Both the position numbers and the translations under genes were made by a program. From a virus (lineage: Duplodnaviria > Heunggongvirae > Uroviricota > Caudoviricetes), in IMG/VR virus record IMGVR_UViG_2728369181_000006, positions 1 through 44,578 of that record: DNA of 44,578 nt, one strand, 5' to 3'. The notes beneath the pieces were generated by a model. That model was given only the letters and a program-made list of their open reading frames with translations. It did no database searches and was not told the DNA's origin. Positions 1,807 through 43,248 of the stretch are shown here, one piece after another. The stretch's first letter is position 1. Each line of letters starts with the position of its first letter.

Positions 1807-1821
1807 TTAGTATAAAAAAGC
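1807..1821. repeat. attR: Lambda att core (prophage right junction, attR-type), followed by lambda P-arm-like sequence
   Basis: ttagtataaaaaagc is the reverse complement of the lambda 15-bp core GCTTTTTTATACTAA; identical copy at 43234-43248. Adjacent AT-rich sequence matches the lambda attP P arm as recalled. Confidence 0.85.
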
Positions 1822-2211
1822 TGAACGAGAAACGTAAAATGATATAAATATCAATATATTAAATTAGATTTTGCATAAAAAACAGACTACATAATACTGT
1901 AAAACACAACATATGCAGTCACTATGAATCAACTACTTAGATGGTATTAGTGACCTGTAACAGAGCATTAGCGCAAGGTGATTTTTGTCTTCTTGCGCTA
2001 ATTTTTTGTCATCAAAACCTGTCGCACTCCAGAGACGCACAAAGCCTTGCAATCCAGTGCAAAGATTTGTGTGTTTAAATTTTGTCTAAGCATTCTAGTG
2101 AAAACATAGTAAAATCAGTAACGGCTGGAAATCATTCAATACTCGCACTATCGAAAGTTAACCAGCCAGCCGCAGTATCCTATCATGACAAGTTACTGCG
2201 GCTTTTTATAT

Positions 2212-2499
2212 TTAACGGATCAACAGCCAGACCAGCAGACACACCACCACTGGCACAGCAAAATCCAACAAACTTCCCACATCCCACACGCGTGGATCAA
2301 AACCGCCCCACCACGGCATATTCATACGCTTGCCATGCCCGAACATTTCTATCCAGCGATATTCTGCCTGGGTGTGTTCTCGGGATATAAAAAACACACA
2401 CCCTATTACAGCCCCAGTTATCGGATCATTAAATAAACTCAAAAACAGAAACTGTAGCGATAATGATATTAGCACATGAATGAAATGAGATATGTCCAT
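2212..2499 (-). CDS. Hypothetical small membrane protein (2 predicted TM segments) downstream of tailspike
   Basis: ORF with internal ATG at 2499 (the ORF-track start at 2508 is TTG); hydrophobic stretches. Overlapping plus-strand ORFs exist, so coding status is uncertain. Confidence 0.25.
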   Translation of the reverse strand: MDISHFIHVLISLSLQFLFLSLFNDPITGAVIGCVFFISREHTQAEYRWIEMFGHGKRMNMPWWGGFDPRVWDVGSLLDFAVPVVVCLLVWLLIR

Positions 2500-2501
2500 A
2501 C

Positions 2502-4160
2502 TTACCAACTCAAAAGAATATTTACATCACCTACGCTAATAGGATTTGGTGTGACATTTTGAAATGTTACCCTGACGATATTATCGGAAACAGCAATAGC
2601 ATCTGAAATTATACCTATTGGGAGATCATTCAACACTGTCATTTGTAGAGGAACTTCATTAGATATGATATATCCGGTCAATGTTCTTTGCATTGAGAAC
2701 CTGCCATTTGCTGAAATCGTGCCAACATTCAACGTTGATTTTACTTTCTTTCCTGAATATGTAACACCATTCAAATCTATATGTGAGTTATTTATTAATG
2801 TCAACGCAGAATATCCTGAAAAATCACTATTAGCCCCGGCCTGCCTTACTACAGAGAATTTATCAGCTCGTATTGCAAAGTCACCAGTTGCTTCCGATGC
2901 ATTAATGTTATTGGTAACAACAACACCTCCATCAACACAGTTAATAGCATATGTTGCATTTCCTTTTATCGTTATGTTTCTTAAACTTAAATAAGATGCA
3001 AACTGGCATGTGGCAAAAGCAATTGCTCCATCTGATAGATACCCATCTGAAAATTCAACAGACGAAGAATACCTTGATCCTATACACGATTGAGTTCTCG
3101 GTTTAAAAATAGATCCGCCTTTAATATAACAATCCGCCGCATGCTCAACCTTAAGAGAGTCTTCCCCTGAATTGTAAGAAGTGAATTCTGTGCCCCTCAC
3201 GCTTGCACTGTACACACATTCAAGGGAAATATTAGCATTTGATATATGAACCCCATTAACCCCAAATTGAGATCCAGAGCCAGAAACAAGAACTCCACAA
3301 ACAGAGCCTCCATTTACAATCAAATTGTTTGCATCCCAAACTACGCAACTACCACATTGTGAATCAGGGTAGTATCCACCTCCGATAATGAGTCCGTAAT
3401 CACCATCTGTTTCAACAGCAACATTTTTTATGCTGTATATATTTGATCTAAATTGTATTCCTTTTGTTGTTTTTATTATGGAATTTATTGGTTTTGCCAC
3501 AACCCCGTTAACCGGACCTGAAATTATACCATTGTGACTCATATCCAATGTTAATACATTTCCATCCTTGGAAATTATCATCGCTCCACATGAAATGTCT
3601 CTCCTGCCAGAAAGTATACAATATTTACCAACATGAAAATTATCTGCATTCTGAACAGAAACTTTAAAAATACCAGTCAACACATCATAAGAAACATCAT
3701 ATACATTAACAGGACTATAATCCACACCCAATATATTCAGAGGAATATTATCAAACTCATCATAATGTGAATAACCATCAGGAATGTGAATATACTGCCC
3801 GTATTCTATCTGTGATCTAAGCTGATCGGGATCGTACTTCAGCACATTAGGAAAATAGAACTGCAGAGCGCCGTACGCATCATAAACAGCCATAGAATGG
3901 CCTTGCACAGTTACGAATTTGGCAATCTGTCCGTTATATACCGGATAACCAGCAGCGTTAATGATGATTGGTTGAGAAACAGGAACGTGAGAGCCGTCTT
4001 CGTTCTCTACATAAACCGGAATCTGGTTTTCAGGGTTTACCGGGTCAGTGTCAATTTTACCGATATAAATTTTACCATTGGCTACGGCTTTAAAAGAACG
4101 CGCCATAGTGAAGAGTTGCGAAGGCATACTCACTACAACATTAGCTGTAATGTCTGTCAT
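2502..4160 (-). CDS. Tailspike protein (P22 gp9-like N-terminal head-binding domain, divergent receptor-binding domain), 552 aa
   Basis: N-terminus [11 protein letters not shown]...[34 protein letters not shown] closely matches the P22 gp9 head-binding domain; the remainder is divergent and Gly/Ser/Asn-rich. Confidence 0.85.
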
Positions 4161-4295
4161 TTAATTTGCTCCAGATACAAGGAATCGCCGCAGCATGGCT
4201 ACGGTGAGTATTTGTTTGCTTTTTGCACTACACTTTTTGTGTAGTGCTATCTCTCAAGGCCATAGCCGCTGAGTAGCTACGGTGAATTTTGGGCA

Positions 4296-4319
4296 TAAAA
4301 AAACCCAGCCGAAGCTGGG
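4296..4319 (-). terminator. Rho-independent terminator between ant and tailspike
   Basis: Stem cccagc/gctggg with cgaa loop; on the minus strand it is followed by a run of seven U. Confidence 0.5.
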
Positions 4320-4338
4320 TCGTTGCGTTGGTTATCTG

Positions 4339-5217
4339 TCAGTAGTTATGTACTGAAGGAGGCAATTCTTTATTCTTAAGTCTCATCCATGCGGAAAGAT
4401 TCGTTGGTCCGTCTGGCTCATTGATATCAACATCTCGTGTGTGGTTGATTAAAACGTCTCTCGCCATTCCGATAACATACGAGAACTCATGACCGTAGTC
4501 GTAGCATCTGCCGGAATAGTTCGATTGAATTTGTTTTAATGCCGGATACAGTTCGCGGAATAATGCCTGTGAGCGGTTGGCATAATCCCATAACCATACA
4601 AGGCTGTTTGCTTCTTTTGCAGAAAGCTCGTTGGTTTTCTTCTCTTGTTTGCCGATGAATTCGCCTTCAAGCACTACCCTGTGGATGTACTCTACGGCTT
4701 GCGGGATTTGTTCAATTGAAAGTTCATCAATGCTGTCAATACCAAAACGCTGATGAACCATATTGTATGCATCGTCATAGCGAAGTCCTTTCTTTCCTAC
4801 CAGCATGTTTACTGCATCGCGTAGCGGTGTTCTTTCCTCAACAGTGGTTTTCTTTCCTTTTACATACTCGCCATGTTTGCGAATTGAAGGCAGAACTTCT
4901 GCTGTTACCCACTTGCGGAATTTGTGCGGGACCGAACCTTTATTGACTGCATCGCGGCAGCGCAGAACCAATGTATACATACCTGATTCGCTCACAATGC
5001 TTAGATTCTGCTCACCACCAAGGGTGTAACTTAAAGTTACTCCCTTTTCATCGTCATCAAGTGCAGTAAGCGCCTTGCGTGAGTTAGTCAGGGTTAAAGC
5101 ATCACAAACATCTTTTGCTACAAACCACGGCTCACCGCACTTGTTGATGACGCGGATTTCACTGTCGCCGAATTTGAAGATGGTGAAATCGTTTTGTGCC
5201 TTTGCTATACTTTTCAT
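4339..5217 (-). CDS. ant: Antirepressor Ant (Bro-N/AntA N-terminal domain)
   Basis: Bro-N-like N-terminus ([11 protein letters not shown]...[14 protein letters not shown]); position directly downstream of arc as in P22 immI. Start placed at ATG 5217 with AGGAAA RBS; the ORF-track start at 5283 is GTG. Confidence 0.75.
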
Positions 5218-5218: not shown

Positions 5219-5290
5219 TCAATATTTCCTAATCCGATTTGTTGATACCGAAGCCCTGACTGTTCCCGCAGTTGGGGCTTCACTGTTTTG
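5219..5290 (+). ncRNA. sar: Candidate Sar-like antisense RNA covering the ant ribosome-binding region
   Basis: Plus-strand hairpin (gaagccc...gggcttc, about 5250-5282) followed by a T-rich tract, about 70 nt downstream of a weak promoter-like -10 tatact at 5206-5211. Geometry matches P22 sar, which is antisense to the ant RBS. Confidence 0.3.
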
Positions 5291-5449
5291 ATTTCTTTGC
5301 CGCATCAAGCATCACTTCTGAAAACGTGCGCTTGCCACTGAATACTCTTTCTCTTCTCAATTTTTCGTTCGTGCCAAATGATTCGCCATGAACAAAATTT
5401 GGTCTTAAAATGGTAATCGCAATCTCTTTGACTACTGCATCCAAGCGAA

Positions 5450-5602
5450 TCACACCGTTACCCCCTCTCTCTTCAGGCTGTCTATCAGGCGCTTGATAAC
5501 CTCTGAGTTAAACGACCTGCACTCTTCCTTTGCCCTGCTACCGATAGCATCCTTTAACGACTGCGGCATCCTTACCAAAATCTTACTTATTTCTTTCTCC
5601 AT
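5450..5602 (-). CDS. arc: Arc-like ribbon-helix-helix repressor, 50 aa
   Basis: Sequence MEKEISKILVRMPQSLKDAIGSRAKEECRSFNSEVIKRLIDSLKREG resembles P22 Arc (GRSVNSEIYQRV...); GGAGGG RBS; divergent from mnt. Confidence 0.75.
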   Translation of the reverse strand: MEKEISKILVRMPQSLKDAIGSRAKEECRSFNSEVIKRLIDSLKREGVTV

Positions 5603-5716: not shown

Positions 5717-5971
5717 ATGGCAAAAGGTGTGTCAATTTCTCCAACTACGGTAAGAATCCCTGAATCTTTACGCGAGGCTCTTGCTGTCAGAGCATCAAAA
5801 AATGGTCGCTCTGTTAACTCCGAGATCGTCATGATTTTGCAAGCCGCGATTGATGAAGAAAAATCACCAAGATCAATAGAAGGTTTTGCTCAACAAGAAT
5901 CTGAAAAATTTAGGGAGGCTCTTCTTAAGACTCTCAGCAGCATGTACGGAGAAGATAAAAAACCCACCTGA
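5717..5971 (+). CDS. mnt: Mnt-like ribbon-helix-helix repressor, 84 aa
   Basis: Arc/Mnt family motif NGRSVNSEIV; size and divergent arrangement with arc-ant as in P22 immI. Confidence 0.75.
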   Translation: MAKGVSISPTTVRIPESLREALAVRASKNGRSVNSEIVMILQAAIDEEKSPRSIEGFAQQESEKFREALLKTLSSMYGEDKKPT

Positions 5972-5985
5972 CGGTGGGTTTTATT
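5957..5985. terminator. Bidirectional rho-independent terminator
   Basis: Sequence aaaaaa cccacc tgac ggtggg ttttatt; serves convergent mnt (+) and the 140-aa gene (-). Confidence 0.65.
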
Positions 5986-6406
5986 AGTGCTTGTATAGCT
6001 TGAACTCCCTGTCGAGCCATAAGACATAAAAAGTGGCTCCTATCTTATAACCAACCATAGGTGCCTTAGAGCAAAATCTGAACGCAATGAAATCCACATC
6101 TTGAGTAACATGCTTAGGAATCGGAGCCTTTATCGCGTTTCTGGCAATTTTTTCCGTCCCAAGCCCGTGTTTATCAGATTTTCGTATCTCATCCCATGAC
6201 ATCTGACTTAACCTGAACAGCCTATCTGCAAATGCTGCCTTTTCATGCTTTTGGCAGCAATCTAGGCAATACCCCTTTTGTAGGTATCTAAGAGAAAATA
6301 CAGGCGGACTTTTGTCTACATCATGAGATTCGTGATGGATAGAGAGGCCAACAGTAGCAGAGCTCTCTTTATCCCTCTGTTTTATTCTTCCCTTAACTCT
6401 AGGCAT
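5984..6406 (-). CDS. Hypothetical 140-aa protein, candidate toxin partner of the Panacea-domain protein
   Basis: ATG 5 nt after the stop of the upstream Panacea-domain gene; basic protein with C-terminus ...GYKIGATFYVLWLDREFKLYKH loosely reminiscent of RelE/ParE-fold toxins. No confident family assignment. Confidence 0.45.
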   Translation of the reverse strand: MPRVKGRIKQRDKESSATVGLSIHHESHDVDKSPPVFSLRYLQKGYCLDCCQKHEKAAFADRLFRLSQMSWDEIRKSDKHGLGTEKIARNAIKAPIPKHVTQDVDFIAFRFCSKAPMVGYKIGATFYVLWLDREFKLYKH

Positions 6407-6411
6407 ACACG

Positions 6412-6861
6412 TCAGTTAATTAACGTTTTGAAAAAACCTTTCATAGAATCAAGTGTGATTTCTTGGCTAACCGCACCCTCAATGTAAGCATCTTTCCATG
6501 GCTGCTCTTCGTGAGTCATATTGCGCAGTTTCCAGGCAGAAAACTGACCATAAACTTTATACACCTCATCCAGCAATTCAATTTCATCTTCACTGAATTT
6601 TTTAGCGTCAAAGTTTTCTGGCGCAAGTAAAGCTCCGTTACCACAGTCCCTATATTTACGATACAATTCAGGAACTACTGGCCCATGCATCCAGGCTTCA
6701 ATTTTCTCATTAAATAGCGGCTTACCCAGAAGAACCAGAGAAAACCCTTGGGCATAATACGTCAACTTCTGAATTTTTAGGTTAGAGATAATGTCGCCAC
6801 TTTCTTCATCGCAATGCGCCAAGAAGTAGTCGGCGACATCAAAACAAGTGAGCATAAACAT
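6412..6861 (-). CDS. Panacea-domain (DUF4065, SocA/PanA-like) putative antitoxin, 149 aa
   Basis: Motif KIQKLTYYAQGFSLVLLGKPLF...EAWMHGPVVPELYRKY matches the DUF4065 signature as recalled; ATG start with GGAGGT RBS. Confidence 0.7.
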   Translation of the reverse strand: MFMLTCFDVADYFLAHCDEESGDIISNLKIQKLTYYAQGFSLVLLGKPLFNEKIEAWMHGPVVPELYRKYRDCGNGALLAPENFDAKKFSEDEIELLDEVYKVYGQFSAWKLRNMTHEEQPWKDAYIEGAVSQEITLDSMKGFFKTLIN

Positions 6862-7229
6862 ACCTCCATCTTGATAGCCGCAGCTATGTATACAACTGTG
6901 TCAAGTTGCATTTAATACCATAACAAAGCTGTCATCAATCCTTCAGAGGCTAACTTACAACCACTTTCTCGACACGTTTAAATCATTACATTTCACATTT
7001 ACTGCATTTTCGCCGAAGTTACCTATAAGGTAATGTCACATTTCCTGCAAGTTTCATGCAATGTTGAAAAGTGAGCTATTCACTTTTCTATGACACCAAA
7101 CACCAAAAATAGCACTTTTTGCTAAATCATTCGTCCAAGTTGTGGATGGTTTGTCGTTGACACGTTTTCACACACCACTCCACTAATAAAGTATCATCTG
7201 GTATCCTGAGCAAAACTAAGGAGGTTGGT

Positions 7230-7724
7230 GTGTCTGATTCTATGAGTTACGCTGTGCTAGTTGCCGCAACTCTATTTCTGGGGATAGGGTTGCAGATTGC
7301 GTGGTTCTTTTTTTCTAGTTTTATTAAACGCAAAAGAATTGAATCAAGGATATCTGAGATTTCTATTGCTATAGGGAAAAATGCTGAAAATCCAGAGAAT
7401 GATGCCTGCGCACTGAATTACCTTAAAGAAAAGTTTTCCCCTGAAAAATTTGAAAATAGAATTACTGATGCTCTTGGATTGGTAATATCAGTAATTCATA
7501 TGCCACTAAGTTTGCTGATAACAGTGTGGTACTTCGCCATGATCGCCGGAAGAATATTTGGTTTCATGAATATAGATCCTGTAGTTCTTTGGGTTCCAAT
7601 GATACTGCAATTGTTGTTAAGCTTTGCTATCTTTATTTTTTCTGTTTTTATAAAAATTGTCTTCGGAAGATACCCCGGAGAAGCGAAGGGATTTAATAAA
7701 GAATTCATAAAAACTATAAAATAA
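7230..7724 (+). CDS. Inner-membrane protein, putative superinfection-exclusion protein (SieA-like by position)
   Basis: GTG start 5 nt after AAGGAGG; three predicted hydrophobic helices; sits between the gp16-like gene and immI, where P22 carries sieA. Confidence 0.4.
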
Positions 7725-7746
7725 ATGCCGTCCTTGGCTTACAGTG

Positions 7747-9573
7747 CTACTGCCGGGTAGCTTCGTTAACTAAGAGCGGGCGCACGGCAGTAGCCGCCTG
7801 ATTTAGCGCTCTTTCATAAGCTGGCGTTCCAGCTTTAGTGTTTGCCAGACGTAAGAGCGCATTCCTTGCTGCTTTGGATTCATACAAGCGCATCATTGCA
7901 CCGAAACCAGCCTCAAGCCCCATTGATATGCCAAGAGTCGTAGTTGCGCCAATCGTCCTTATCCTGTTGGCTTGCGATTGCCCCGTCTGAGTTACTACAT
8001 TTGCGGTGTCTGATCTTGCTGTTTGCTGTAGAACTTCATGAAGAGCATCAAGTTCTTTCATGTGCTTTCCAGAAAAAATAGTGTTGTAAATTTCACCGCC
8101 TGACTGAGATTTCAGCTTATTAACTTCCGTGATGAACTTGGCTGGAGAGTCACCGGCCTTTTCCGCTATTTTGCTGACGTAAGCTGCACGCATAGCATCT
8201 TTCCCTTTATCATCCAATGCGCTCCAGATTCGTTTCACGTCAGATGGTTTTCTGCTTAATACAACAGTATTTATAAGTTCAGGACTGGCTTCACTGCTTG
8301 CCTTGTTGAGCTTGTTAGCAATGTTTTTATTAAGCACCTTATTATAAACGTTTGCATAATCGGAGTTTGCTTTAAGGTATTTTGCTGCGTCTGATGCACC
8401 GAGGTTTTTTGCAACTGCGTTACGAAGGTCTTTTGACATTGCATTCTCTACCATATTGGTAGCTGCTTTTGCCTGGTTGGGGAAGACCATAGCATCCCCC
8501 TGAACATTAGATCTAAATGCTGTTCTGTGCTGACGCAGGAGATCAAACGTAACATCCAAATCAGTTGCAGGGTTTGCTAATTCTTCACGTAGGTTACGCA
8601 AGGATGTAAGCAGGCTTTGATTGGCAGACGTCCCAAGCCGTTCCTGTCTTGCGATCGCTGTATTCAGAGCATTCATGGTATTTGTGGTATCAACTGCGGC
8701 ATTACCCATTTTATTGGTGACGTCATTGATAACAGCGCCAGCGGCATCCTTCCGTCCCCTTAACGTGGTGGTCAGAGATTTCACCACATCATCAGGGTTG
8801 TACTCACCAAAACGGTCAAAATAATTGCTTACCAGCTTACTACGCGTTGCATATTGCTCCGCTCGCTTTGAGCCTGTCCCGAGCAAAGCCCCCTCAGCAT
8901 CCTGAGTAAGTCCGCGAGTGAAAGCATTTTTCGGCGGGATAACATCAGATGTCATTGGTGTCACGCCCATCGATTCTGATGTGGCAATTTTCTTCGCCAC
9001 TTCTGGCGCAATATCACCTTTTATAGCCGTTATTCCACGCCCTATTCCCTTTGCTGCTGCGGAAAGAACACCCTGAGCGGCAAGGTTAACTCCGGCATTT
9101 TTAGCTGCATTTTGTGCGAAATCACCTTTCTGATTTGCGGCCTCTGCCAGTGATCCAATAGCCATGCTTCCTGCCGTTCCAACTCCTGGAACTAAATACC
9201 CGCCAATTGTTTCTCCAGCTTGAGCGTAAGGGTCTGTCGGTCGATCGACTGGACGATAGACATCATCCAATACTTTTGGCCCACCAAGCCCCTGACTGAT
9301 TGCATTAATCAGACTTGCGCCACCCTGCAATACGTCAAATGGTATGTTTACCAGACCACGACCAGCCTGTTCTGCAATTTGCCCTGCACTTTGACCACCA
9401 GTGAGCCAGTCAGTAGCTTTTCCCACCAGAGATTGTTCTTCTGGCTGCGATTGGTTTTGAGTGGATTGATCACCAGAAGACAGCATCTGAGCAATGCGAC
9501 GTGCTCCCTCAGTATCGCCGGCAGCATCAGCATTCCTTAACGCCGTCATCAACTGTTCACGACTATAGGCCAT
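7747..9573 (-). CDS. Ejection (injection) protein, P22 gp16-like, 608 aa
   Basis: Size and position after the gp20-like gene; Ala/Gly-rich; ATG start overlaps the upstream stop. Confidence 0.75.
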
Positions 9574-31820: not shown

Positions 31821-32537
<717 letters not shown>

Positions 32538-33292: not shown

Positions 33293-33295
33293 CAA

Positions 33296-34088: not shown

Positions 34089-34712
34089 ATGTCATCAATC
34101 CGCTTAACTACGAGAATGAAAGAGAAAATCGCTCGTAACGCTTTAATTAAGTCTGGGGTTTTCACTGAGCTTGAAGAAGTAACAAAGTTAAAGAACCAGC
34201 TTGCACTTGACGCCAGAGTTATTGCGTTTGGCGGTAAAAAGAAAACTGAGGAAGTGGATCAGTTATCATCCAAGTTGGTAGCTATAAGTGAAGAACTTGG
34301 AAAGATGGGATGTTCATTTTACTCATACGATTTTCGTTCTACTTCAATTTATCTGACTGTATCTGGCAGAAGGGTTGGATGGCATTCATATGAGAAAGAC
34401 GGCAACGGCGAAGATATATTTCTCCCTACTCCGATAAAAGATAAATGCATGTTTGACGCAGAGCACGAAATAACAAAAAGGTTTGATGAAATCTGCTCAT
34501 TACAACAAAAACTTGAAGCCAAGAAAAAGGATATCGAATCAAATGTATGGGCTGCTTTAAACTCAGTCACAACAGTTAAGCGACTTATTGAGGTTTGGCC
34601 TGAAAGCAAAGAGTTGCTACCAAAAGAAGCAGATAAAGCAAGTACAGCACTTCCTGCTTTACGGGTAGAAGATTTGAATAAGATGATTGGACTTCCTTCC
34701 GAGGCCGCATAG
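34089..34712 (+). CDS. Hypothetical early protein, 207 aa
   Basis: ATG 34089 with GAGAGGAA RBS directly after N; no recognisable family. Confidence 0.5.
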   Translation: MSSIRLTTRMKEKIARNALIKSGVFTELEEVTKLKNQLALDARVIAFGGKKKTEEVDQLSSKLVAISEELGKMGCSFYSYDFRSTSIYLTVSGRRVGWHSYEKDGNGEDIFLPTPIKDKCMFDAEHEITKRFDEICSLQQKLEAKKKDIESNVWAALNSVTTVKRLIEVWPESKELLPKEADKASTALPALRVEDLNKMIGLPSEAA

Positions 34713-35234: not shown

Positions 35235-35328
35235 GCACTGTGTATTCATCCAACGAGTGAATACACGGAGCAATGTCGCTCGTAACTAAACAGGAGCCGA
35301 CTTGTTCTGATTATTGGAAATCTTCTTT

Positions 35329-35355
35329 GCCCTCCAGTGTGAGGGCGATTTTTTA
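35329..35355 (+). terminator. Rho-independent terminator within the early-left operon
   Basis: gccctc-cagtgt-gagggc followed by gattttttat. Confidence 0.55.
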
Positions 35356-35374: not shown

Positions 35375-35743
35375 ATGTCAAACATCAAAAAATACATCAT
35401 TGATTACGACTGGAAAGCATCAATAGAAATTGAAATCGACCATGACGTAATGACAGAGGAAAAACTTCACCAGATTAATAATTTCTGGTCAGACTCTGAA
35501 TACCGACTCAATAAACACGGCGCTGTATTAAATGCTGTATTAATCATGCTGGCGCAACATGCTCTGCTTATAGCAATTTCGCAAGACTTAAATGCATATG
35601 GTGTTGTTTGTGAGTTCGACTGGGATGATGGAAATGGTCAGGAAGGATGGCCTCCAATGGATGGTAGTGAAGGAATAAGAATTACCGATATCGATACATC
35701 AGGAATATTTGATTCAGATGATATGACTATCAAAGCCGCCTGA
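35375..35743 (+). CDS. Hypothetical early protein with acidic C-terminal region, 122 aa
   Basis: ATG with GAGGA RBS; C-terminus rich in D/E/G. Confidence 0.45.
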   Translation: MSNIKKYIIDYDWKASIEIEIDHDVMTEEKLHQINNFWSDSEYRLNKHGAVLNAVLIMLAQHALLIAISQDLNAYGVVCEFDWDDGNGQEGWPPMDGSEGIRITDIDTSGIFDSDDMTIKAA

Positions 35744-35818
35744 GCGCGGCTTTACCGCATACCAATAATGCTTCACGAGAGGCATTTTCGTTATGCAATC
35801 AAATATAAGGAGTTACCC

Positions 35819-35953
35819 ATGATGCACTTTCAGCTCGCGGGTAGCGGCGTCATGTCCGCTTTCTACCCGCACGAATCTGAATTATCACGCCGAGTTAAAC
35901 AATTAATCAGAGCAGCAAAGAAACAACTGGAGGCGTTATGCGCAATGAAATAG
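35819..35953 (+). CDS. cIII: CIII-like small protein (putative FtsH inhibitor), 44 aa
   Basis: MMHFQLAGSGVM...HESELSRRVKQLIRAAKKQL resembles the lambda CIII amphipathic core; AAGGAG RBS; directly upstream of and overlapping the kil-like gene as in lambda. Confidence 0.35.
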   Translation: MMHFQLAGSGVMSAFYPHESELSRRVKQLIRAAKKQLEALCAMK

Positions 35954-36090
35954 CCATTAATCACCAGATGCTTCGTGCTGCACAGAACAAAGCAGTAATA
36001 GCCCGATTTATTGGTGATTCAAAAATGTGGCTTGAAGCAAATAAAGCGATGAAATCAGCTATCAACCTTCCGTGGTATCGCAGGAAATGA
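35938..36090 (+). CDS. kil: Kil-like small protein, 50 aa
   Basis: …AVIARFIGDSKMWLEANKAM… resembles lambda Kil (…IATFIGDEKMFREA…) as recalled; overlaps the cIII-like stop. Confidence 0.35.
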   Translation: MRNEIAINHQMLRAAQNKAVIARFIGDSKMWLEANKAMKSAINLPWYRRK

Positions 36091-36194
36091 GTTTTACAGA
36101 TAACTGGTCAGACGAAGAATTCATTCGTCAGATGAACAAAATGCTCAATCAGCACAAAGAACAGGAGAAAGATGATGATTCTGACTCTGAATGA
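36087..36194 (+). CDS. Small acidic ORF, 35 aa
   Basis: ATGA overlap with kil-like stop. Confidence 0.25.
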   Translation: MSFTDNWSDEEFIRQMNKMLNQHKEQEKDDDSDSE

Positions 36195-36483
36195 TAAGCG
36201 TGAAATATCGCAAATAATCGCAAGTTTTACTGATGAAGATTACGAACGAATCAACAGTGAAGTTGATCGTCTCTGCAAACGTTGCGACCCAATAAGCGAA
36301 ATGCTTCGCTCATATAAACCAGATGAACACACTAAGGACGCTATCGACTGGCTGGAAGATGATGACTGTAACTATCAGGAAAAAGCCGCTGAATGGTTCT
36401 GGGATGCAATAACCGAAAGAGTTAAGGCTGAATATGCCTTCGCAATATTCAAACGCAGACACATTTATGGAGAAGCAGCATGA
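36172..36483 (+). CDS. Hypothetical protein, 103 aa
   Basis: ATG with AGGAGAAA RBS; stop overlaps recT start. Confidence 0.45.
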   Translation: MMILTLNDKREISQIIASFTDEDYERINSEVDRLCKRCDPISEMLRSYKPDEHTKDAIDWLEDDDCNYQEKAAEWFWDAITERVKAEYAFAIFKRRHIYGEAA

Positions 36484-37391
36484 GCAATATCGTTGAATTC
36501 GTTAAACAGCAGGAGCAGTTATTCTGCGGAGCATTGACTGAACAGACGGTGACATGGGCTAAGGAAAGCCAGTTTGCAATTCAGTATTTCCAGAAAAATG
36601 ATTACCTGGCTAAAACAGCACTGGCAAACCCAACCAGCGCACAGAACGCCATCATCAATGTTGCGGCGATCGGCATCACCTTAAACCCGGCCAGCAAACT
36701 TGCTTATCTAGTTCCGCGAGACGGCATGGTTTGCCTTGATATCAGCTATATGGGATTGCTCCATATTGCAATGGAGTCTGGTGTTATCTCATGGGGTCAG
36801 GCAAAACTTGTTCATGCTAACGATACCTATGAGTCAAACGGGCTTGATAAAGCACCAACCCATAAATACAACGCCTTCGGTGATCGTGGTGATATCGTTG
36901 GCGTTTACTGCACAGTTAAGACGCCAGCAGGTGATTATCTAACGGAAGAGATGAGTCTGGCTGAAATTGAGGCTGTAAGGAAAACAAGCAAGGCAGCATT
37001 CAGCGATAAAGGACCATGGGTAAATCACTGGAATGAGATGGCGCGAAAGACGGTCGTAAAGCGTGCAAGCAAGTATTGGCCTAAGGCATCACGTCTTGAT
37101 AGTGCTATTCACGTACTAAACGAAGAAGAAGGTGTATGGACTGAACCAGTTATGCCGCACAAATCAGAGGAAGATATCCGCGAAGATGAACGGAAACGCC
37201 AGCAGGAAATTATGGAAAAAGCACAACTTCTTTGTGATGAAATGGCTCAGGCTGAAAACATGGATGATTTGAAGCGATATTTTGCAGAAGCATATCGCCT
37301 GACATCTGGAATGAAATTGCAGCAGAACGTACAAGCCATTTACATAGAATGCAAAGCGAAACTGGAGGTTGCCAGTGAGCAAACTGTATGA
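36480..37391 (+). CDS. recT: RecT-family single-strand annealing recombinase, 303 aa
   Basis: RecT signature region (…AQNAIINVAAIGITLNPASKLAYLVPRDG…YMGLLHIAMESG…). Confidence 0.8.
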   Translation: MSNIVEFVKQQEQLFCGALTEQTVTWAKESQFAIQYFQKNDYLAKTALANPTSAQNAIINVAAIGITLNPASKLAYLVPRDGMVCLDISYMGLLHIAMESGVISWGQAKLVHANDTYESNGLDKAPTHKYNAFGDRGDIVGVYCTVKTPAGDYLTEEMSLAEIEAVRKTSKAAFSDKGPWVNHWNEMARKTVVKRASKYWPKASRLDSAIHVLNEEEGVWTEPVMPHKSEEDIREDERKRQQEIMEKAQLLCDEMAQAENMDDLKRYFAEAYRLTSGMKLQQNVQAIYIECKAKLEVASEQTV

Positions 37392-37857
37392 AATTGCCAA
37401 TGAATACGCAAAATTGATGGATTCAGATTTAGAACCAGAGATGATTGCTGACACAATAGAAGGCATGGAAGGAGAATTTACCGATAAAATAGAGCAACTT
37501 CTTTCCGTCATTAAAAATGAATCTGGTTATGCTGAACGCCTCAAGGAAGAGGCAAAGTCACTGAATGAGCGAGCCGCAGTAATTCAAAATAAGATTGACA
37601 GCATCAAATCATATATAGCGTCATCGCTTGAAATGGTTGGCAAGAAAAATATTCGAGCAGGTATTCACCAGGTAACAATCCGCAAACCGTCAGAAACTGT
37701 AGAAATCATCGACTCAAGCGCCCTTCCTCCTGAATACGTTGAGTTTGAAACGACAATTAAAGCCGACAAACTGGCAATCAAACACCAACTAAAAGCAGGA
37801 ATAAATATCCCCGGCGCTCAACTCAAAGTTGGGAAACCTTCACTTCTTATCAAATAA
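37375..37857 (+). CDS. Gp157-family protein (commonly paired with phage recombinases)
   Basis: GTG start 6 nt after GGAGG; coiled-coil protein immediately downstream of recT. Confidence 0.5.
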   Translation: MSKLYEIANEYAKLMDSDLEPEMIADTIEGMEGEFTDKIEQLLSVIKNESGYAERLKEEAKSLNERAAVIQNKIDSIKSYIASSLEMVGKKNIRAGIHQVTIRKPSETVEIIDSSALPPEYVEFETTIKADKLAIKHQLKAGINIPGAQLKVGKPSLLIK

Positions 37858-37868
37858 CGGTATCGACT

Positions 37869-38183
37869 ATGAAAAAGACTCCATGGGAGAAATGGGAAGT
37901 CGATTTCTTGCGCGAAGTGGCGGCGACAATGCCAGTTGAAGTTATCGCTGAAAAACTGGAAAGGACTGAAAAAGCAGTAATGGCGAAAGCAACAAGGATT
38001 GGAGCTGACATTGTTAGCCGACTTCGTGGAAGACGCTGGACAAGAGCCGAAGTATCACTTTTCGGTAAGTTCTCCGCAGAAGAAATAGCAATTGCAACCT
38101 GCCGCTCAATTTATTCAGTAAGAGCTATGCGATACAAGCTAAAAAAACTCGATGAAGAAAGAGCAGGCATACGAATAAATTAA
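37869..38183 (+). CDS. Hypothetical protein, 104 aa
   Basis: ATG ORF; basic; unknown function. Confidence 0.45.
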   Translation: MKKTPWEKWEVDFLREVAATMPVEVIAEKLERTEKAVMAKATRIGADIVSRLRGRRWTRAEVSLFGKFSAEEIAIATCRSIYSVRAMRYKLKKLDEERAGIRIN

Positions 38184-38199
38184 CATGGAGTAATTAACA

Positions 38200-38481
38200 A
38201 TGAAGCTAAACATCGACCTCGGAAAATACGTTATTACTGGAACAAAACACGACCTGATTCTTAATGAAAGAGGAATTATCAAAGAAGGCGAGAATGCAGG
38301 GAAAGAAACACTAAGCCGTATCGGTTATTACAGCAAGTTTGAGCATCTGGTTAAAGAGTTATGCAACCGTGAAATCCTGTTATCTCAGGCGCAGACGCTA
38401 CAGGATATTCAGCAGCATATCGAGACTTTAGGTGTGTCACTTAGCATGGCTATTGACCAGTTCGAGGAGAGTAAATCATGA
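38200..38481 (+). CDS. Hypothetical protein, 93 aa
   Basis: ATG ORF with GGAG RBS. Confidence 0.45.
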
Positions 38482-38642
38482 GAGGACTTGCCTACAATCC
38501 CGGCATTCTTCCGGCAGAAATGATTATTCGCCAACGCGTAAAGCCAATGCCATCGAGAGAGGAATTGCTTAAGAGAAATTCTTTTCCATCAGTGAATCAA
38601 AACAAATATCTGAATGCGATGTGGCGGAGTGGGAAGAAATGA
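38478..38642 (+). CDS. Small ORF, 54 aa
   Basis: ATGA overlaps at both ends, GAGGAGAG RBS. Confidence 0.35.
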
Positions 38643-39235
38643 AACAAATGTCACTAATTGAGATGGATGGATTTCTGAAAGGTAAATGCATCCCACGAGA
38701 TTTAAAGGTTAACGAAACAAACGCTGAATATCTGGTGCGTAAATTTGCTGAAGCGGAGGCCAAGATTTCGGCTCTGTACGAAGACCACCAGAAAGCGATT
38801 GAGTCAATTAAGCAGGCTGATGCAGCTGTTAAGTTGGCACACGAGAAGTTTTCGGCGCTGGCGGCGGAGAATGAGGCGTTGAAGTCGAACCTGATTTACT
38901 GGGGCGGCGAAGATTCAGAGCCCGTCAGAAGCCCGCTTGATTACGCCCATGAAGCCAGGCTGAAATCTGGAGAGGAGTTTGAGATGCAAGTGGCAGCCAG
39001 AATGCCGAACCTAACTTATCGCGTTGTGTCCAGTTCCCGGTTCAAAACAGAAATAGAACTGATTGGCGGATTATTGCCGGAAACACCAGCCACCAACGCT
39101 TTCCTGGCTGAAGTAAGGGCGCAGGGTGTGGAGATGTTCTCTGAGAAATTTGGTGGAGGAACTCTATTATCCAGCATGGTTAAAGAGACCGCCAAAGAGT
39201 TCTCCGCCCAGCTTCGCAAAGGAGGCAACAAGTGA
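38639..39235 (+). CDS. Hypothetical protein, 198 aa
   Basis: ATG 38639 (the ORF-track start at 38621 is GTG); coiled-coil central region. Confidence 0.45.
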
Positions 39236-39777
39236 GTGTAACGGTTGAAAAGATTGATGTGTTGTCATTCGTTATAACCGGTGCAGAGAGACTAGATCCG
39301 GTTCGAGTGATGATTGAAAACTACGAACCTGGAAAGGGAAGAATCACCATCACCTGCTACGGAAAAGCGTGGACTGCGGCTTGGTTTGCTATGGGCGGTG
39401 ATGATGTGCAGACGTTCATTAAGCGAGTTAGCAACGATTATCTAATCGACAATTTCGCCCCCCAACTGCTAAGCACGGTCGACGATGACAACGATGCAAA
39501 TCTGCTTTTCGTGAAGTCAGAAATCATAAAGTTACGAAGAGAGAGAGAAATCGACGCCGTACTGGCTCGCGAAATGTGGGACGAGGCGGAAAACGCCGAT
39601 GACATAAAAGAAAGCTGCTGCTGTTTCGGCGTCGGTAACAAACTACTGAATCTCTTTGGTGATGATCCGTGGTGTGCCAACTGGCCAACGATACCAAACC
39701 CGAAATACCAGTATCTGGAACGCGTACTTAATGCAGTGAGAGACGGTCTTAAGCAAATAGAGAAGGTGGAACCATGA
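39232..39777 (+). CDS. Hypothetical protein, 181 aa
   Basis: GTG start after AGGAGG, GTGA overlap with upstream stop. Confidence 0.45.
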   Translation: MSVTVEKIDVLSFVITGAERLDPVRVMIENYEPGKGRITITCYGKAWTAAWFAMGGDDVQTFIKRVSNDYLIDNFAPQLLSTVDDDNDANLLFVKSEIIKLRREREIDAVLAREMWDEAENADDIKESCCCFGVGNKLLNLFGDDPWCANWPTIPNPKYQYLERVLNAVRDGLKQIEKVEP

Positions 39778-40073
39778 CTGTATGTCTTATTGATAAACGT
39801 CGACGTGGGCAACAAATACCATCTGTTGAAATGCCGAATCACACATGGTTTTGCGTACTTGATATCGATGGCATGGATAAGTTTGTCGACACTCGTCATT
39901 ACTGCGATACCGCAACAGCTACTCCGGCGAAAGCAAAGAAAATGGCTGCTCTGATAGAAAACTGGACTCCACCTGATGGTTGGTGCAATGGGAATGATCG
40001 AGATTGGCATGAAAAAATGAAGGGCTATATCTGCGATTTCTTACGTAAATGCAACGGCTTCAGGGTGATGTGA
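39774..40073 (+). CDS. Hypothetical protein, 99 aa
   Basis: ATG ORF overlapping the upstream stop. Confidence 0.45.
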   Translation: MTVCLIDKRRRGQQIPSVEMPNHTWFCVLDIDGMDKFVDTRHYCDTATATPAKAKKMAALIENWTPPDGWCNGNDRDWHEKMKGYICDFLRKCNGFRVM

Positions 40074-40074
40074 T

Positions 40075-40758
40075 ATGGCCAAAATTAACTATCAGGCACT
40101 GCGTGAAAAGGCAGAGAAAGCAACGTGTGGTGAGTGGTCGCTCGAATATGGAGAGGAGAGATTTGATGCTGGTGATGCGCTAATTCATCGTGAAGTTGTT
40201 GGATATCTTCCCATTTGCAGAATTGAAGGAGCGCATCCTGAAAGCGGTTTCGATGAAGATTTCCAAATGGAACAGCAGGCCAATGCTGAATTCATCGCTG
40301 CAGCCAATCCGGCTACCGTGCTGGAACTACTGGATGAACGGGAAAGAAACCAGCAATACATCAAACGCCGTGACCAGGAGAACGAGGATATTTCGCTAAC
40401 GGTTGGGAAGCTGCGCGTTGAGCTTGAAACAGCAAAATCAAAACTCAACGAGCAGCGTGAATATTATGAGGGAGTAATCGCGGATGGAAGTAAGCGCATA
40501 GCAGAACTGGAAAGCAACGAAGTCCGTGAAGTCGGAAATCAGTTTCTTGTTGTTCGCCATCCTGGGAAAACTCCTGTCATCAAGCACTGCACTGGTGACC
40601 TGGAAGAGTTTCTGCGGAAGTTAATCGAACAAGACCCGTTAGTAACTATCGACATCATTACGAATCGCTATTACGGGATTGGCGGTCAATGGGTTCAGGA
40701 TGCAGTTGAGTATCTGCATATGATGTCTGACGCTGGCATTCGCATCAAAGGAGAGTGA
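40075..40758 (+). CDS. Ead/Ea22-like protein, 227 aa
   Basis: N-terminus MAKINYQALREKAEKATCGEW and central coiled coil are characteristic of the Ead/Ea22 family as recalled. Confidence 0.5.
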   Translation: MAKINYQALREKAEKATCGEWSLEYGEERFDAGDALIHREVVGYLPICRIEGAHPESGFDEDFQMEQQANAEFIAAANPATVLELLDERERNQQYIKRRDQENEDISLTVGKLRVELETAKSKLNEQREYYEGVIADGSKRIAELESNEVREVGNQFLVVRHPGKTPVIKHCTGDLEEFLRKLIEQDPLVTIDIITNRYYGIGGQWVQDAVEYLHMMSDAGIRIKGE

Positions 40759-40759
40759 T

Positions 40760-41287
40760 ATGACCACTATTACCAGAAAAGAACAAAAGCAAGTTCTCAT
40801 AGATACAGCTAATCACGTAATCAACCGTGATAATACTTCACCATATAGCGAAAATCTTAGGGAACTGGCACGAATTGCGCTGGCATCGCTGGAAGCAGAG
40901 CCTATAAGCCAAACTTACAACTTGCCACAAACGCACTTTGAACAGGTTGCTGACCTTTACGAAATGCAATTTGAGGATGGACGCACTTGTACCTTTCACA
41001 CTGATGCGCAAAAGGCTGTGCAATGGCTTCAGGCGTGCGACGGAAACAGGGTTCAGGAATACGTTAAGCTGGAACGATTGCAGAACGCACTGTCTGGCAA
41101 CTCTCCGGTAACTCCGGATGGTTGGGTTATGGTGCCGAAGGAGTTAACCCCGGAAATGATGAGAGCCGTTCAGATTAGAAGTGAGCTTGGAGGGTATGCC
41201 ACTTCCAATCTATCTGGTGCATACAATATGTTTTCTGAGTTCTGGAATGTTGCTGTCTCAGCTGCGCCTAAGGTGGATGATTTATGA
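40760..41287 (+). CDS. Hypothetical protein, 175 aa
   Basis: ATG ORF; contains the common phage motif …VPKELTPEMMRAV…. Confidence 0.45.
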   Translation: MTTITRKEQKQVLIDTANHVINRDNTSPYSENLRELARIALASLEAEPISQTYNLPQTHFEQVADLYEMQFEDGRTCTFHTDAQKAVQWLQACDGNRVQEYVKLERLQNALSGNSPVTPDGWVMVPKELTPEMMRAVQIRSELGGYATSNLSGAYNMFSEFWNVAVSAAPKVDDL

Positions 41288-41586
41288 ATCTATATCGCTG
41301 CCCATTCTGTGGTTCCACTGTGCTTAACATCGGATACTCATTCAATATCAGAGGGAAAATGCGCTATGTGTCATGCAAATGTGGTGCCCAAGGACCAGAA
41401 AAACGAACTAAATCTGAAGCGATTTCTTCATGGAATACTCGAATGAAGGTATGGGTTTATGATCCAGAAACCATATTAAACGCTGAAGAGCGCAGGAGAA
41501 CGGAAGTCTATATTCATAACCTTAATGAAGATGGATTTACACCAGTGCTTGTAAAGGCTACTCCGCAGGAGGTTAACCATGGCTAA
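41284..41586 (+). CDS. Lar-family restriction-alleviation protein with C-terminal extension, 100 aa
   Basis: Lar signature: CPFCGS … CKCGAQGP … EAISSWNTR in the first ~55 aa. Confidence 0.6.
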   Translation: MNLYRCPFCGSTVLNIGYSFNIRGKMRYVSCKCGAQGPEKRTKSEAISSWNTRMKVWVYDPETILNAEERRRTEVYIHNLNEDGFTPVLVKATPQEVNHG

Positions 41587-41649
41587 CCTGCAACTTGACG
41601 TCAAAGGTGAATAACAATCCTCGCACTCGCGGGGATTTCTTTTATCTGA

Positions 41650-41672
41650 ACTCGCTACGGCGAGTTTTGTTT
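41650..41672 (+). terminator. Putative terminator downstream of the Lar-like gene
   Basis: actcgc-tacg-gcgagt followed by tttgttt. Confidence 0.35.
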
Positions 41673-41687
41673 CATGGAGATGATAAA

Positions 41688-41855
41688 TGCACTTCCGAGT
41701 CACAGGTGAATGGAATGGAGAACCATTCAACAGAGTTATCGAAGCAGAGAACATCAACGACTGCTATGACCACTGGATGATATGGGCGCAGATAGCACAT
41801 GCAGACGTAACCAATATTTGTATTGAAGAACTGAAAGAACACCAAGCCGCCTGAT
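41688..41855 (+). CDS. Small ORF, 55 aa, upstream of xis
   Basis: ATG with GGAGA RBS; followed by hairpin agccgcc/ggcggtt plus T-run. Confidence 0.3.
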
Positions 41856-41893
41856 GGCGGTTTTTTCTTGCGTGTAATTGCGGAGACTTTGCG

Positions 41894-42112
41894 ATGTACT
41901 TGACACTTCAGGAGTGGAACGCACGCCAGCGACGCCCAAGAAGCCTTGAAACAGTTCGTCGATGGGTACGCGAGTGCAGGATATTCCCACCACCGGTTAA
42001 GGACGGAAGAGAGTATTTGTTCCACGAATCAGCGGTAAAGGTTGACTTAAATCGACCAGTAACAGGTAGCCTTTTGAAGAGGATCAAAAATGGGAAGAAG
42101 GCGAAGTCATGA
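41894..42112 (+). CDS. xis: Excisionase Xis (lambda-type), 72 aa
   Basis: MYLTLQEWNARQRRPRSLETVRRWVRECRIFPPPVKDGREYLFHESAVKVDLNRP matches lambda Xis as recalled. Confidence 0.9.
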   Translation: MYLTLQEWNARQRRPRSLETVRRWVRECRIFPPPVKDGREYLFHESAVKVDLNRPVTGSLLKRIKNGKKAKS

Positions 42113-43160
42113 GCGCCGGGATTTACCCCCTAATCTTTATATAAGAAACAATGGATATTACTGCTACAGGGACCAAAGGACGGGTAAAGAGTTTGGATTA
42201 GGCCGAGACAGGAGGATAGCAATCACTGAAGCAATACAGGCCAACATTGAGTTATTTTCAGGACACAAACACAAGCCTCTGACAGCGAGAATCAACAGTG
42301 ATAATTCTGTTACGTTACATTCATGGCTTGATCGCTACGAAAAAATCCTCGCCAGCAGAGGAATCAAGCAGAAGACACTTATAAATTACATGAGCAAAAT
42401 TAAAGCAATAAGGAGGGGTCTGCCTGATGCTCCACTTGAAGACATCACCACAAAAGAAATTGCGGCAATGCTCAATGGATACATAGACGAGGGCAAGGCG
42501 GCGTCAGCCAAGTTAATCAGATCAACACTGAGCGATGCATTCCGAGAGGCAATAGCTGAAGGCCATATAACAATAAACCCGGTCGCTGCCACTCGCGCAG
42601 CAAAATCAGAGGTAAGGAGATCAAGACTTACGGCTGACGAATACCTGAAAATTTATCAAGCAGCAGAATCATCACCATGTTGGCTTAGACTTGCAATGGA
42701 ACTGGCTGTTGTTACCGGGCAGCGTGTTGGGGATTTATGCGAAATGAAGTGGTCTGATATCGTAGATGGCTATCTTTATGTCGAGCAAAGCAAAACCGGC
42801 GTAAAAATTGCCATCCCAACAACATTGCATGTTGATGCTCTTGGGATATCAATGAAGGAAACACTTGATAAATGCAAAGAGATTCTTGGCGGAGAAACCA
42901 TAATTGCATCTACTCGTCGTGAACCGCTTTCATCCGGCACAGTATCAAGGTATTTTATGCGCGCACGAAAAGCATCAGGTCTTTCCTTCGAAGGGGATCC
43001 GCCTACCTTTCACGAGTTGCGCAGTTTGTCTGCAAGACTCTATGAGAAGCAGATAAGCGATAAGTTTGCTCAACATCTTCTCGGGCATAAGTCGGACACC
43101 ATGGCATCACAGTATCGTGATGACAGAGGCAGGGAGTGGGACAAAATTGAAATCAAATAA
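42090..43160 (+). CDS. int: Integrase Int (lambda-type tyrosine recombinase), 356 aa
   Basis: MGRRRSHERRDLPPNLYIRNNGYYCYRD… matches lambda Int as recalled; catalytic R…HxxR…Y residues present; overlaps xis. Confidence 0.9.
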   Translation: MGRRRSHERRDLPPNLYIRNNGYYCYRDQRTGKEFGLGRDRRIAITEAIQANIELFSGHKHKPLTARINSDNSVTLHSWLDRYEKILASRGIKQKTLINYMSKIKAIRRGLPDAPLEDITTKEIAAMLNGYIDEGKAASAKLIRSTLSDAFREAIAEGHITINPVAATRAAKSEVRRSRLTADEYLKIYQAAESSPCWLRLAMELAVVTGQRVGDLCEMKWSDIVDGYLYVEQSKTGVKIAIPTTLHVDALGISMKETLDKCKEILGGETIIASTRREPLSSGTVSRYFMRARKASGLSFEGDPPTFHELRSLSARLYEKQISDKFAQHLLGHKSDTMASQYRDDRGREWDKIEIK

Positions 43161-43233
43161 TGATTTTATTTTGACTGATAGTGACCTGTTCGTTGCAACA
43201 AATTGATAAGCAATGCTTTTTTATAATGCCAAC

Positions 43234-43248
43234 TTAGTATAAAAAAGC
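43234..43248. repeat. attL: Lambda att core (prophage left junction, attL-type), preceded by lambda P'-arm sequence
   Basis: ttagtataaaaaagc identical to 1807-1821; 43161-43233 is the reverse complement of the lambda P' arm as recalled. Confidence 0.85.

Follow-up and report, generated by a model that had tools for sequence, protein, structure and literature searches.

IMG/VR virus record IMGVR_UViG_2728369181_000006 is a stretch of 44,578 nucleotides, hereafter the window, that carries a prophage in which genes closely related to those of phage lambda stand beside genes of the kind found in phage P22. It raises the question of whether such a combination arose from a single meeting of these two phages or was assembled from many sources. 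An earlier description made without database searches (the sequence-only reading) had taken the prophage for a mosaic of lambda and P22 modules and had likened it to laboratory lambda-P22 hybrids. The comparisons described here make it highly probable that this is a natural, temperate, P22-like lambdoid prophage at attλ, built by repeated module exchange among lambdoid phages of E. coli and Shigella and not by one lambda × P22 cross, and that it is probably defective in packaging.

Integration at the lambda attachment site

The window contains just two exact copies of the 15-bp common core of lambda, GCTTTTTTATACTAA, located at 1807-1821 and 43234-43248, where 0.01 copies would be expected by chance, and these two cores coincide with the prophage limits of 1807-43248 that had been proposed earlier. 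They enclose 41.4 kb, in inverted orientation with respect to the standard lambda map, so that int lies on the + strand. The attR core (1807-1821, POB' side) adjoins ybhB and is followed by the P arm of lambda attP and the start of the b region (1822-2073, - strand), which are 98.2% identical to lambda 27473-27742; the corresponding blastn match, 1803-2073, has 98% identity. At the other end, the P' arm and the attL core (43161-43248, - strand) adjoin ybhC and match lambda 27724-27811 in 88 of 88 nucleotides. The integrase gene (42090-43160, +; Pfam Arm-DNA-bind_1 and Phage_integrase) encodes a protein sharing 351 of 356 residues (99%) with lambda Int, and the xis product (41894-42112, +; Pfam Exc) shares 70 of 72 residues (97%) with lambda Xis, the whole int-xis segment 41611-43248 being 97% identical to lambda DNA by blastn.

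The left flank (1-1806), composed of an InsQ/TnpB gene and ybhB, recurs with 100% identity in several E. coli strains, Nissle 1917 and NU14 among them; on the right, the prophage is bordered by ybhC, as annotated in the matching E. coli genomes. An arm-binding integrase, an excisionase, both attachment-site arms, a duplicated core and insertion between ybhB and ybhC were all found, as in lambda site-specific integration, and by its flanks and cores the prophage occupies the classical attλ site of a B2-type E. coli chromosome. Lambda-type Int would catalyze insertion at attλ, and Int together with Xis would mediate excision at the two 15-bp cores. Adjacent to ybhB, the gene at 1-1131 (- strand) encodes an InsQ/TnpB-family RNA-guided endonuclease, as it does in Nissle 1917 and NU14, and bioA takes its place in E. 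coli fECg99.1; matches to 80% or more of this flank were found in just 342 of the 5426 complete E. coli genomes.

Composition of the prophage

Modules were mapped by local blastn and by tblastn of each open reading frame (ORF) against lambda, P22, Sf6 and HK620. Lambda-like DNA makes up 19% of the prophage. P22 matches 35% of it at any detectable level, mostly at 73-79% identity, and 6% at 90% identity or more, while Sf6, HK620 and Huey each match 19-27% at that higher level. Among the Lederbergvirus members compared, blastn coverage was 35% for P22, 25% for Sf6, 24% for HK620 and 29% for Huey; the nucleotide criterion of the International Committee on Taxonomy of Viruses for this genus is approximately 70% identity over the whole genome. 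The overall gene order is lambdoid, running att-int-xis-early left-N-pL/OL-cI-OR/pR-cro-cII-O-P-nin-Q-lysis-virion.

The part of the sequence-only reading that placed int, xis, att, cI, cro, Q, pR', S, R and several nin genes near lambda was confirmed by blastn and tblastn, Q being identical in 207 of 207 residues. The genes and sites alike in lambda, at 92-100% identity, are int, xis, attP, cI, cro, OR, OL, Q, pR', S, R, ninE, ninG, ninH, ninI and ea10. Unlike lambda, the prophage lacks rexAB, cos and the lambda genes for head and tail, and its O, P, cII, ninB, Rz, N arginine-rich motif and nut sites are different. With P22 it has in common the genome plan, the N arginine-rich motif and boxB, the mnt-arc-sar-ant arrangement, sieA, gp10, scaffold, portal, gp16 and coat; it differs from P22 in integration, immC, replication, terminase (with an unrelated TerS), gp7 and gp20 (30-39% identity), needle tip and tailspike receptor domain, and has no gtrABC.

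A direct lambda/P22 hybrid, whether made in the laboratory or left by a single recent natural cross, would account for lambda parts that are 92-100% identical and for the presence of P22-type N/nut, immI and virion modules. We consider this origin extremely unlikely, for the P22-homologous DNA is mostly 73-79% identical with only 6% reaching 90%, the lambda-type cI is 92% identical at the DNA level, replication genes, ninB, cII, terminase, needle, gp7, gp20 and most of the early-left region come from neither parent, and the host flank is that of a wild B2-type E. coli. The likeness to a lambda-P22 hybrid does not survive these figures, given the contributions of HK620, Sf6 and Huey; the element is indeed a mosaic lambdoid prophage, but the shares of lambda and P22 in its parentage had been overstated.

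Judged by sequence identity, the parts not related to lambda are closest to HK620, Sf6, Huey and uncharacterised P22-like prophages of E. coli. The E. coli P22-like group (HK620, Sf6, Huey, APC_JM3.2, IME10 and the fECg99.1 and 2013C-4991 prophages) has the same virion gene order and families, although each member covers only 19-53% of the prophage, and immunity, N, early-left region, immI accessory genes and tailspike differ. Huey, a Lederbergvirus with lambda-type int and xis (PMC12243541), is also alike in attP, whereas HK620 and Sf6 have IntS and a different attachment site. The fECg99.1 prophage lies at the same ybhB-ybhC site and is alike in its lambda-type cI (227 of 237 residues), cro, int, O and DnaB-type helicase, and mnt-arc-ant.

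Module joints and recurrence of the architecture

The joints that span the mosaic lie at 2073, 9196, 24131-24294, 28620, 31112, 31509 and 33555. Lambda homology in the immunity region ends at 31509, 14 nucleotides past the cro stop codon, and OL-pL homology ends at the start of the pL transcript (33555), beyond which the leader is P22-like. Short segments common to lambda, P22, Sf6 and HK620 were found at the end of cII and start of O (31080-31182), at tR2/ninA (28276-28357) and at tL2 (35235-35354), and the latter two linkers coincide with the boundary sequences annotated in Sf6 as bsq6 and bsq4, respectively. Other joints are intragenic, namely in N near codon 85, in gene 16 at 9196 and in Rz. 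Junctions at cro/nutR, cII/O and nin had been anticipated by the sequence-only reading and are borne out by the end of cro homology, by the cII/O linker and by the patchwork composition of nin. The location of many joints in short linkers conserved between very different lambdoid phages, among them the cro 3' end with boxA and the start point of the pL transcript, fits homologous recombination there, with occasional selected illegitimate joints. Among P22-like phages, epsilon34 and its relatives have been described as highly mosaic in their early regions, with exchange reaching throughout the lambdoid phages (PMC2629481).

Database comparison gave no uniform match to a single described phage, the result that would have refuted the sequence-only reading: among phage records, coverage of either half does not exceed 48%. 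Complete E. coli genomes reach 56% of either half at best, and so none attains 80%. A close relative was found in one IMG/VR contig, IMGVR_UViG_3300045988_055550 (L058, hereafter the sister contig), which is collinear and at least 99.9% identical over the stretches compared, approximately 32 kb of the window; two of its fragments, together spanning 21.6 kb, show seven single-base differences. It differs at 7194-9196, where an HK620-type gene 16 and flank replace the P22-type sieA and most of gene 16, which indicates, from the alignment, that a module was swapped very recently, one of the joints falling within gene 16. The 52-nucleotide linker that leads from the cro end to nutR was found in 40 IMG/VR contigs, 15 of which continue into lambda-type cro and cI, the rest sharing the linker only. 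In a genome collection with a single representative per species, exact-pattern scans detected neither this linker nor the terL frameshift site described below.

These comparisons also bear on whether assembly could have fused a lambda-like and a P22-like prophage of the same genome into a chimera. In favour of this, assemblies are known to go wrong at repeated lambdoid sequences, and coverage of either half stays below 80% in every complete E. coli genome. Against it, a single pair of att cores brackets an element of ordinary P22-like size and gene order, the independent sister contig is collinear except for the one swapped segment, and the individual joints recur in many other contigs and in cultured phages; we regard an artefact of this kind as highly improbable. 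On sequence comparison, the architecture built by module exchange is recurrent in nature and not an unusual hybrid, and this exact combination is without a described uniform match.

Lambda-type immunity

The cI gene (31824-32537, +; Pfam HTH_3 and Peptidase_S24) encodes a repressor identical to lambda CI in 225 of 237 residues (95%); none of the 12 substitutions falls in the helix-turn-helix, and the Ala-Gly cleavage site, Ser149 and Lys192 are retained. Cro (31523-31723, -; Pfam Cro) matches lambda Cro in 65 of 66 residues (98%), the sole difference being V55I, and the segment cro-OR-cI (31509-32533) is 92% identical to lambda DNA by blastn. The right operator, OR1-OR2-OR3 with pR and pRM, lies at 31750-31813 and the left operator, OL3-OL2-OL1 with pL, at 33474-33534, in an OL-pL segment (33288-33555) with 90% blastn identity to lambda. 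Of the three-site operators, which the sequence-only reading called near-identical to lambda, OR2, OR3, OL2 and OL3 are identical to it, OR1 reads TACCTCTaGCGGTGATA and OL1 reads TACCACTaGCGGTGATA; the latter two each carry one G-to-A change relative to lambda at operator position 8 (window positions 31759 and 33525). The OR1 variant is common to HK542, HK106 and the fECg99.1 prophage, and the OL1 variant is absent from lambda, HK542 and HK106, the only other OL1 sequences examined. With four of six operators identical and the helix-turn-helix unchanged, the region has the sequence characteristics of the lambda immunity group, and we infer homoimmunity with lambda.

The neighbouring cII gene (31120-31416, -; Pfam Phage_CII, E 8e-35) encodes a product with 44% protein identity to lambda cII; it is of HK106/HK97 type, and HK106 DNA is 89% identical over the cII-cro-cI segment 31113-32537. 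A promoter and terminator scan placed pR, pL, pR', the leader terminator, timm and a tR2-like terminator all in the expected positions. In the lysogen, CI of lambda specificity would act on the tripartite OR and OL operators to keep pR and pL off, and repression would be relieved either by RecA-stimulated CI cleavage or by Ant, the antirepressor encoded in the immI region.

Wild lambda-immunity phages, namely HK106, mEp234, HK542 and HK244 (GenBank EF120457-EF120461), sequenced by Degnan et al. (2007, Mol Microbiol 64:232; PMID 17376085), were compared with the prophage. They are alike in the lambda specificity of cI, cro and operators, including the OR1 G-to-A change, in the replacement of rexAB and in having variable N/nut alleles; HK106 also pairs lambda immunity with the P22-type boxB GCGCTGACAAAGCGC, and HK542 has the same type of N C-terminus and downstream Nmad5 gene. 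They are, however, HK97-like siphoviruses with other cassettes in the rex position (hicAB or other ORFs), and the prophage differs from them in its N chimera and in the additional OL1 G-to-A change.

A frameshift in the large terminase gene

The small terminase gene (20842-21297, -) is of Sf6 type (Pfam Sf6_terminase, E 2e-41), its product having 46% protein identity to TerS of Sf6 and HK620 and no tblastn match to P22 gp3. The large terminase gene terL (19426-20873, -; Pfam Terminase_6N and Terminase_6C), encoding a protein with 46% identity to P22 gp2, is split by a 1-nucleotide deletion at 20623-20630, a lesion that the sequence-only reading had overlooked. Its two pieces are a 91-residue ORF (20598-20873), ending in a stop after 91 codons, and a 401-residue ORF (19426-20631). 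An intact homologue of 482 residues in a prophage of E. coli 2013C-4991 is 99% identical at the DNA level (1429 of 1449 nucleotides, with a single gap) and reads GGGGTGGG where the window has GGGGGGG, the wider context being GGATGGGGTGGGTAT in the intact gene and GGATGGGGGGGTAT in the window. The intact form was found in three IMG/VR contigs and the same deletion in one, the sister contig. This terS/terL allele was found only in E. coli prophages, such as that of 2013C-4991, and in IMG/VR contigs: when the terminase region (19534-21287) was compared by megablast with 50,697 phage records, only its edges matched, and neither terS nor terL did.

Because the near-identical sister contig carries the same deletion, the lesion is probably heritable, and with TerL truncated the prophage is probably packaging-defective as sequenced. 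What the sequence suggests is a probably recently disabled prophage that still supplies immunity, SieA exclusion and accessory genes. An alternative is that the prophage is fully functional, either because the frameshift arose as an error of sequencing or assembly or because ribosomes bypass it by -1 slippage at G GGG GGU. In its favour, every other essential gene checked has an ORF of homologue length, the regulatory sites are intact, and the lesion lies in a G run where a -1 shift would restore the frame. Intact relatives, however, read GGGGTGGG, so that the change is a lost T and not a miscounted homopolymer, and the deletion recurs in a second contig distinguished by its seven single-base differences in 21.6 kb and its swapped module. 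G GGG GGU is not known as an efficient slippery site, which further weighs against slippage, and full function appears unlikely, though it deserves serious consideration. Much more speculatively, the lesion in the G run might be a reversible switch that turns the production of particles on and off, a reading of low probability.

Several points weigh against a natural, packaging-defective mosaic with lambda immunity. In a stretch so rich in G, the terL deletion may be an error of sequencing, and its presence in the sister contig could stem from the same sample or sequencing technology. Approximately 30% of the prophage (12.7 kb) is without a blastn match in the seven references compared locally. 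Homoimmunity with lambda has to accommodate the 12 substitutions in CI and the alteration of both O1 operators, recombination at linkers is deduced from the positions of the joints, and regulation, inducibility and the packaging defect are all read from sequence.

Antitermination and the early-left region

The N gene (33736-34077, +; Pfam N_peptide) encodes a chimeric antiterminator of 113 residues that begins MTVIVYGKSTFVGNAKTRRHERRRKLAIERD and contains GNAKTRRHERRRKLAIERD. The first approximately 70 residues resemble P22 gp24, with an identical arginine-rich motif (GNAKTRRHERRRKLAIER), but the last approximately 30 are of the lambda/HK542 N type and not of the gp24 type, so the resemblance to gp24 does not extend over the full length. 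nutL (33582-33616, +) has boxA GGCTCTTTA and a boxB (33602-33616) identical to that of P22 nutL, and nutR (31481-31515, -) has boxA CGCTCTTTA and boxB ACCGCCGACAACGCGGT, with two of 37 nucleotides differing from P22 between boxA and boxB inclusive. GACAA-loop boxB hairpins are present downstream of both pL and pR, each preceded by a boxA, as in the gp24-type system of P22. The earlier assignment of a P22-type N holds for the arginine-rich motif and the nutL boxB and fails at the lambda-type C-terminus. According to the phage L genome paper (PMC8022706), nut specificity of N and gp24 resides in the N-terminal 75 residues, and P22-type boxB recognition is therefore expected of the chimeric protein. 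N with its P22-type arginine-rich motif would bind the GACAA-loop boxB RNAs at nutL and nutR, allowing the early terminators to be read through. The same N allele, 96-97% identical over all 113 residues, is present in many Shiga toxin (Stx)-converting phages, both Stx1 and Stx2; these phages (SH2026Stx1 and Stx2a phages), compared on N only, are alike in this chimeric allele and have genomes otherwise unrelated in size and virion type.

Directly downstream of N lies a gene (34089-34712, +) for a protein with nucleotide modification associated domain 5 (Nmad5; Pfam PF18757, E 4e-70), 97% identical to HK542 DNA. The delayed early-left genes (35375-41780, +) comprise ea10 (98% protein identity to lambda), cIII, kil, RecT, a Gp157-like gene, small ORFs like those of Sf6 and HK620, and Ea22-like and Lar-like genes.

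Replication, late control and lysis

The replication module (28623-30948, -) consists of a gene for a DnaB-type helicase (28623-30074; Pfam DnaB and DnaB_C) and an O initiator gene (30049-30948) with iterons at 30461-30561, inside O. By tblastn the two products are 99% and 98% identical, respectively, to P and O of HK620, the helicase has 31% identity to P22 gp12, and O gave no match to P22 gp18. The sequence-only reading had called replication P22-type; as these identities indicate, only the type is shared, that is, an O-like initiator with a DnaB-family helicase, and the allele is that of HK620. HK620-type O would bind the iterons inside its own gene and recruit the phage DnaB-type helicase.

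The nin region (25014-28623, -) includes lambda-like ninI, ninH and ninG, a ninX-like ORF, ninE, ninB of the HK620 allele and four small ORFs. NinG, NinH and NinI have 98-100% protein identity to lambda, the segment Q-ninI-ninH-ninG (24294-26606) is 98% identical to lambda DNA, and the tR2 linker is 99% identical to lambda and 93% to P22. The gene for the late antiterminator Q (24394-25017, -; Pfam Antiterm) is followed by the late promoter pR' (TTGACT/TAAATT) and a short leader terminator, located at 24261-24351 (-) by the promoter and terminator scan, with lambda homology extending through the promoter to about +20, where it ends. In the lysis cassette (22743-23960, -), the S holin and R endolysin have 99% and 98% protein identity to lambda, with 93% DNA identity over the S-R segment, and Rz is 99% identical to that of Sf6, 90% to P22 and 59% to lambda; as a whole, the cassette is closest to Sf6 (97% DNA identity). 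Lambda Q acting at pR' would turn on the late genes, namely the lambda/Sf6-type lysis cassette and a P22-family module for headful packaging and a short-tailed virion.

Virion module

The genes for gp10, gp4, coat, scaffold and portal (12844-19425, -) match Pfam Phage_stabilise, P22_Tail-4, P22_CoatProtein, Phage-scaffold and P22_portal, and their products have 93%, 59%, 73%, 85% and 78% protein identity to P22, respectively. The ejection and needle region (7747-12844, -; Pfam P22_gp7, Inj_translocase and Phage_tail_NK) encodes gp16 (7747-9573), gp20 (9573-10859), gp7 (10859-11572), a 129-residue ORF (11505-11894) and the tail needle (11891-12844), with protein identities of 76% to P22 for gp16, approximately 30% for gp20, 39-44% for gp7 and 80% to Sf6 for the needle, which has an Sf6-type knob. 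The 129-residue ORF (-; phrog_17333), in the position of P22 gene 14, has no detectable similarity to gp14 (DUF2824) of P22, Sf6 or HK620. The tailspike (2502-4160, -; Pfam Head_binding, E 5e-66; phrog_8280) matches the reference phages over residues 1-113 to 1-133 only, at 77-90% identity, and its receptor-binding part is unrelated to that of P22, Sf6 or HK620. Downstream of it lies a 98-residue ORF (2212-2508, -; phrog_1443, E 3e-44) with no Pfam match.

The module retains P22-like synteny, terS-terL-portal-scaffold-coat-gp4-gp10-needle-(gp14)-gp7-gp20-gp16, plus a tailspike with a head-binding domain, with an unrelated ORF in the gene 14 slot and terL frameshifted. Morphogenesis had been called P22-type as a whole; P22-family domains and P22 order agree with this, but identity to P22 is 73-93% for only part of the module, and terminase, gp7, gp20 and needle are not those of P22.

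The immI region and accessory cassettes

Between gene 16/sieA and the tailspike lies an immI region organized as in P22, with mnt divergent from arc-ant, a sar RNA, and extra ORFs inserted. The ant gene (4339-5217, -; ATG at 5217; Pfam Bro-N and P22AR_C) and the arc gene (5450-5602, -; Pfam Arc, E 1e-11) encode proteins with 55% and 35% identity to P22 Ant and Arc, and mnt (5717-5971, +; Pfam Arc domain, E 6e-11) one with 35% identity to P22 Mnt. The sar antisense RNA (5219-5284, +) lies over the ant start and was detected well within Rfam RF00262 (63.7 bits for a gathering score of 43; E 5.5e-11). A P22-type mnt-arc-ant region, as read earlier, is accordingly present in diverged form. An additional 57-residue ORF (5280-5453) separates arc and ant.

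The superinfection exclusion gene sieA (7230-7724, +) encodes a protein 91% identical to P22 SieA over 164 residues. Between mnt and sieA is a two-gene cassette (5984-6861, -) encoding a SocA/Panacea antitoxin-like protein of 149 residues (6412-6861; Pfam SocA_Panacea, E 2.8e-24; NCBIfam SocA_antitoxin match below cut-off) and then a 140-residue partner (5984-6406), which gave a weak, sub-threshold match to PADLOC NsnC and the MAG6450 family and no match in a search of PDB sequences. This Panacea-domain pair is a candidate toxin-antitoxin or defence pair. Its exact junction sequence recurs in just two further IMG/VR contigs. A 159-residue protein encoded between the lysis genes and terS (22042-22521, -) has a C-terminal Tad2-like domain (Thoeris anti-defence 2-like; Pfam PF11195, E 1.8e-21).

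Where lambda has rexA-rexB, the prophage has two ORFs of 145 and 107 residues (32545-33292, +) in a cassette that ends at the timm terminator (33294-33315). They matched phrog_5893 and phrog_6324 only, with no match in lambda, P22, Sf6 or HK620 by per-ORF tblastn and none in Pfam, PADLOC, NCBIfam or PDB sequences. A single-sequence AlphaFold2 model of the 145-residue protein was all-beta and of low confidence (mean predicted local distance difference test score 57.7), too low for a meaningful fold search; the 107-residue protein, by inspection of its sequence, seems to combine a coiled coil with a hydrophobic segment at its C-terminus. Four IMG/VR loci (L018, L025, L038 and L047) have the whole cassette at 99% identity or more, and three others (L010, L020 and L042) have part of it. 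By analogy with RexAB, the pair could conceivably be an undescribed exclusion or abortive-infection system of the lysogen, one protein being a soluble sensor and the other a small effector in the membrane, a speculative proposal to which we give little credence.

Significance

The prophage is a clean example of lambdoid modular mosaicism, whose meaning beyond annotation is small. The terL lesion probably prevents it from producing particles. Its host strain, which also carries SieA, should resist phages of lambda immunity, and the accessory cassettes, namely the rex-position pair, the Panacea pair, the Tad2-like gene and Nmad5, are candidates for phage defence or counter-defence.

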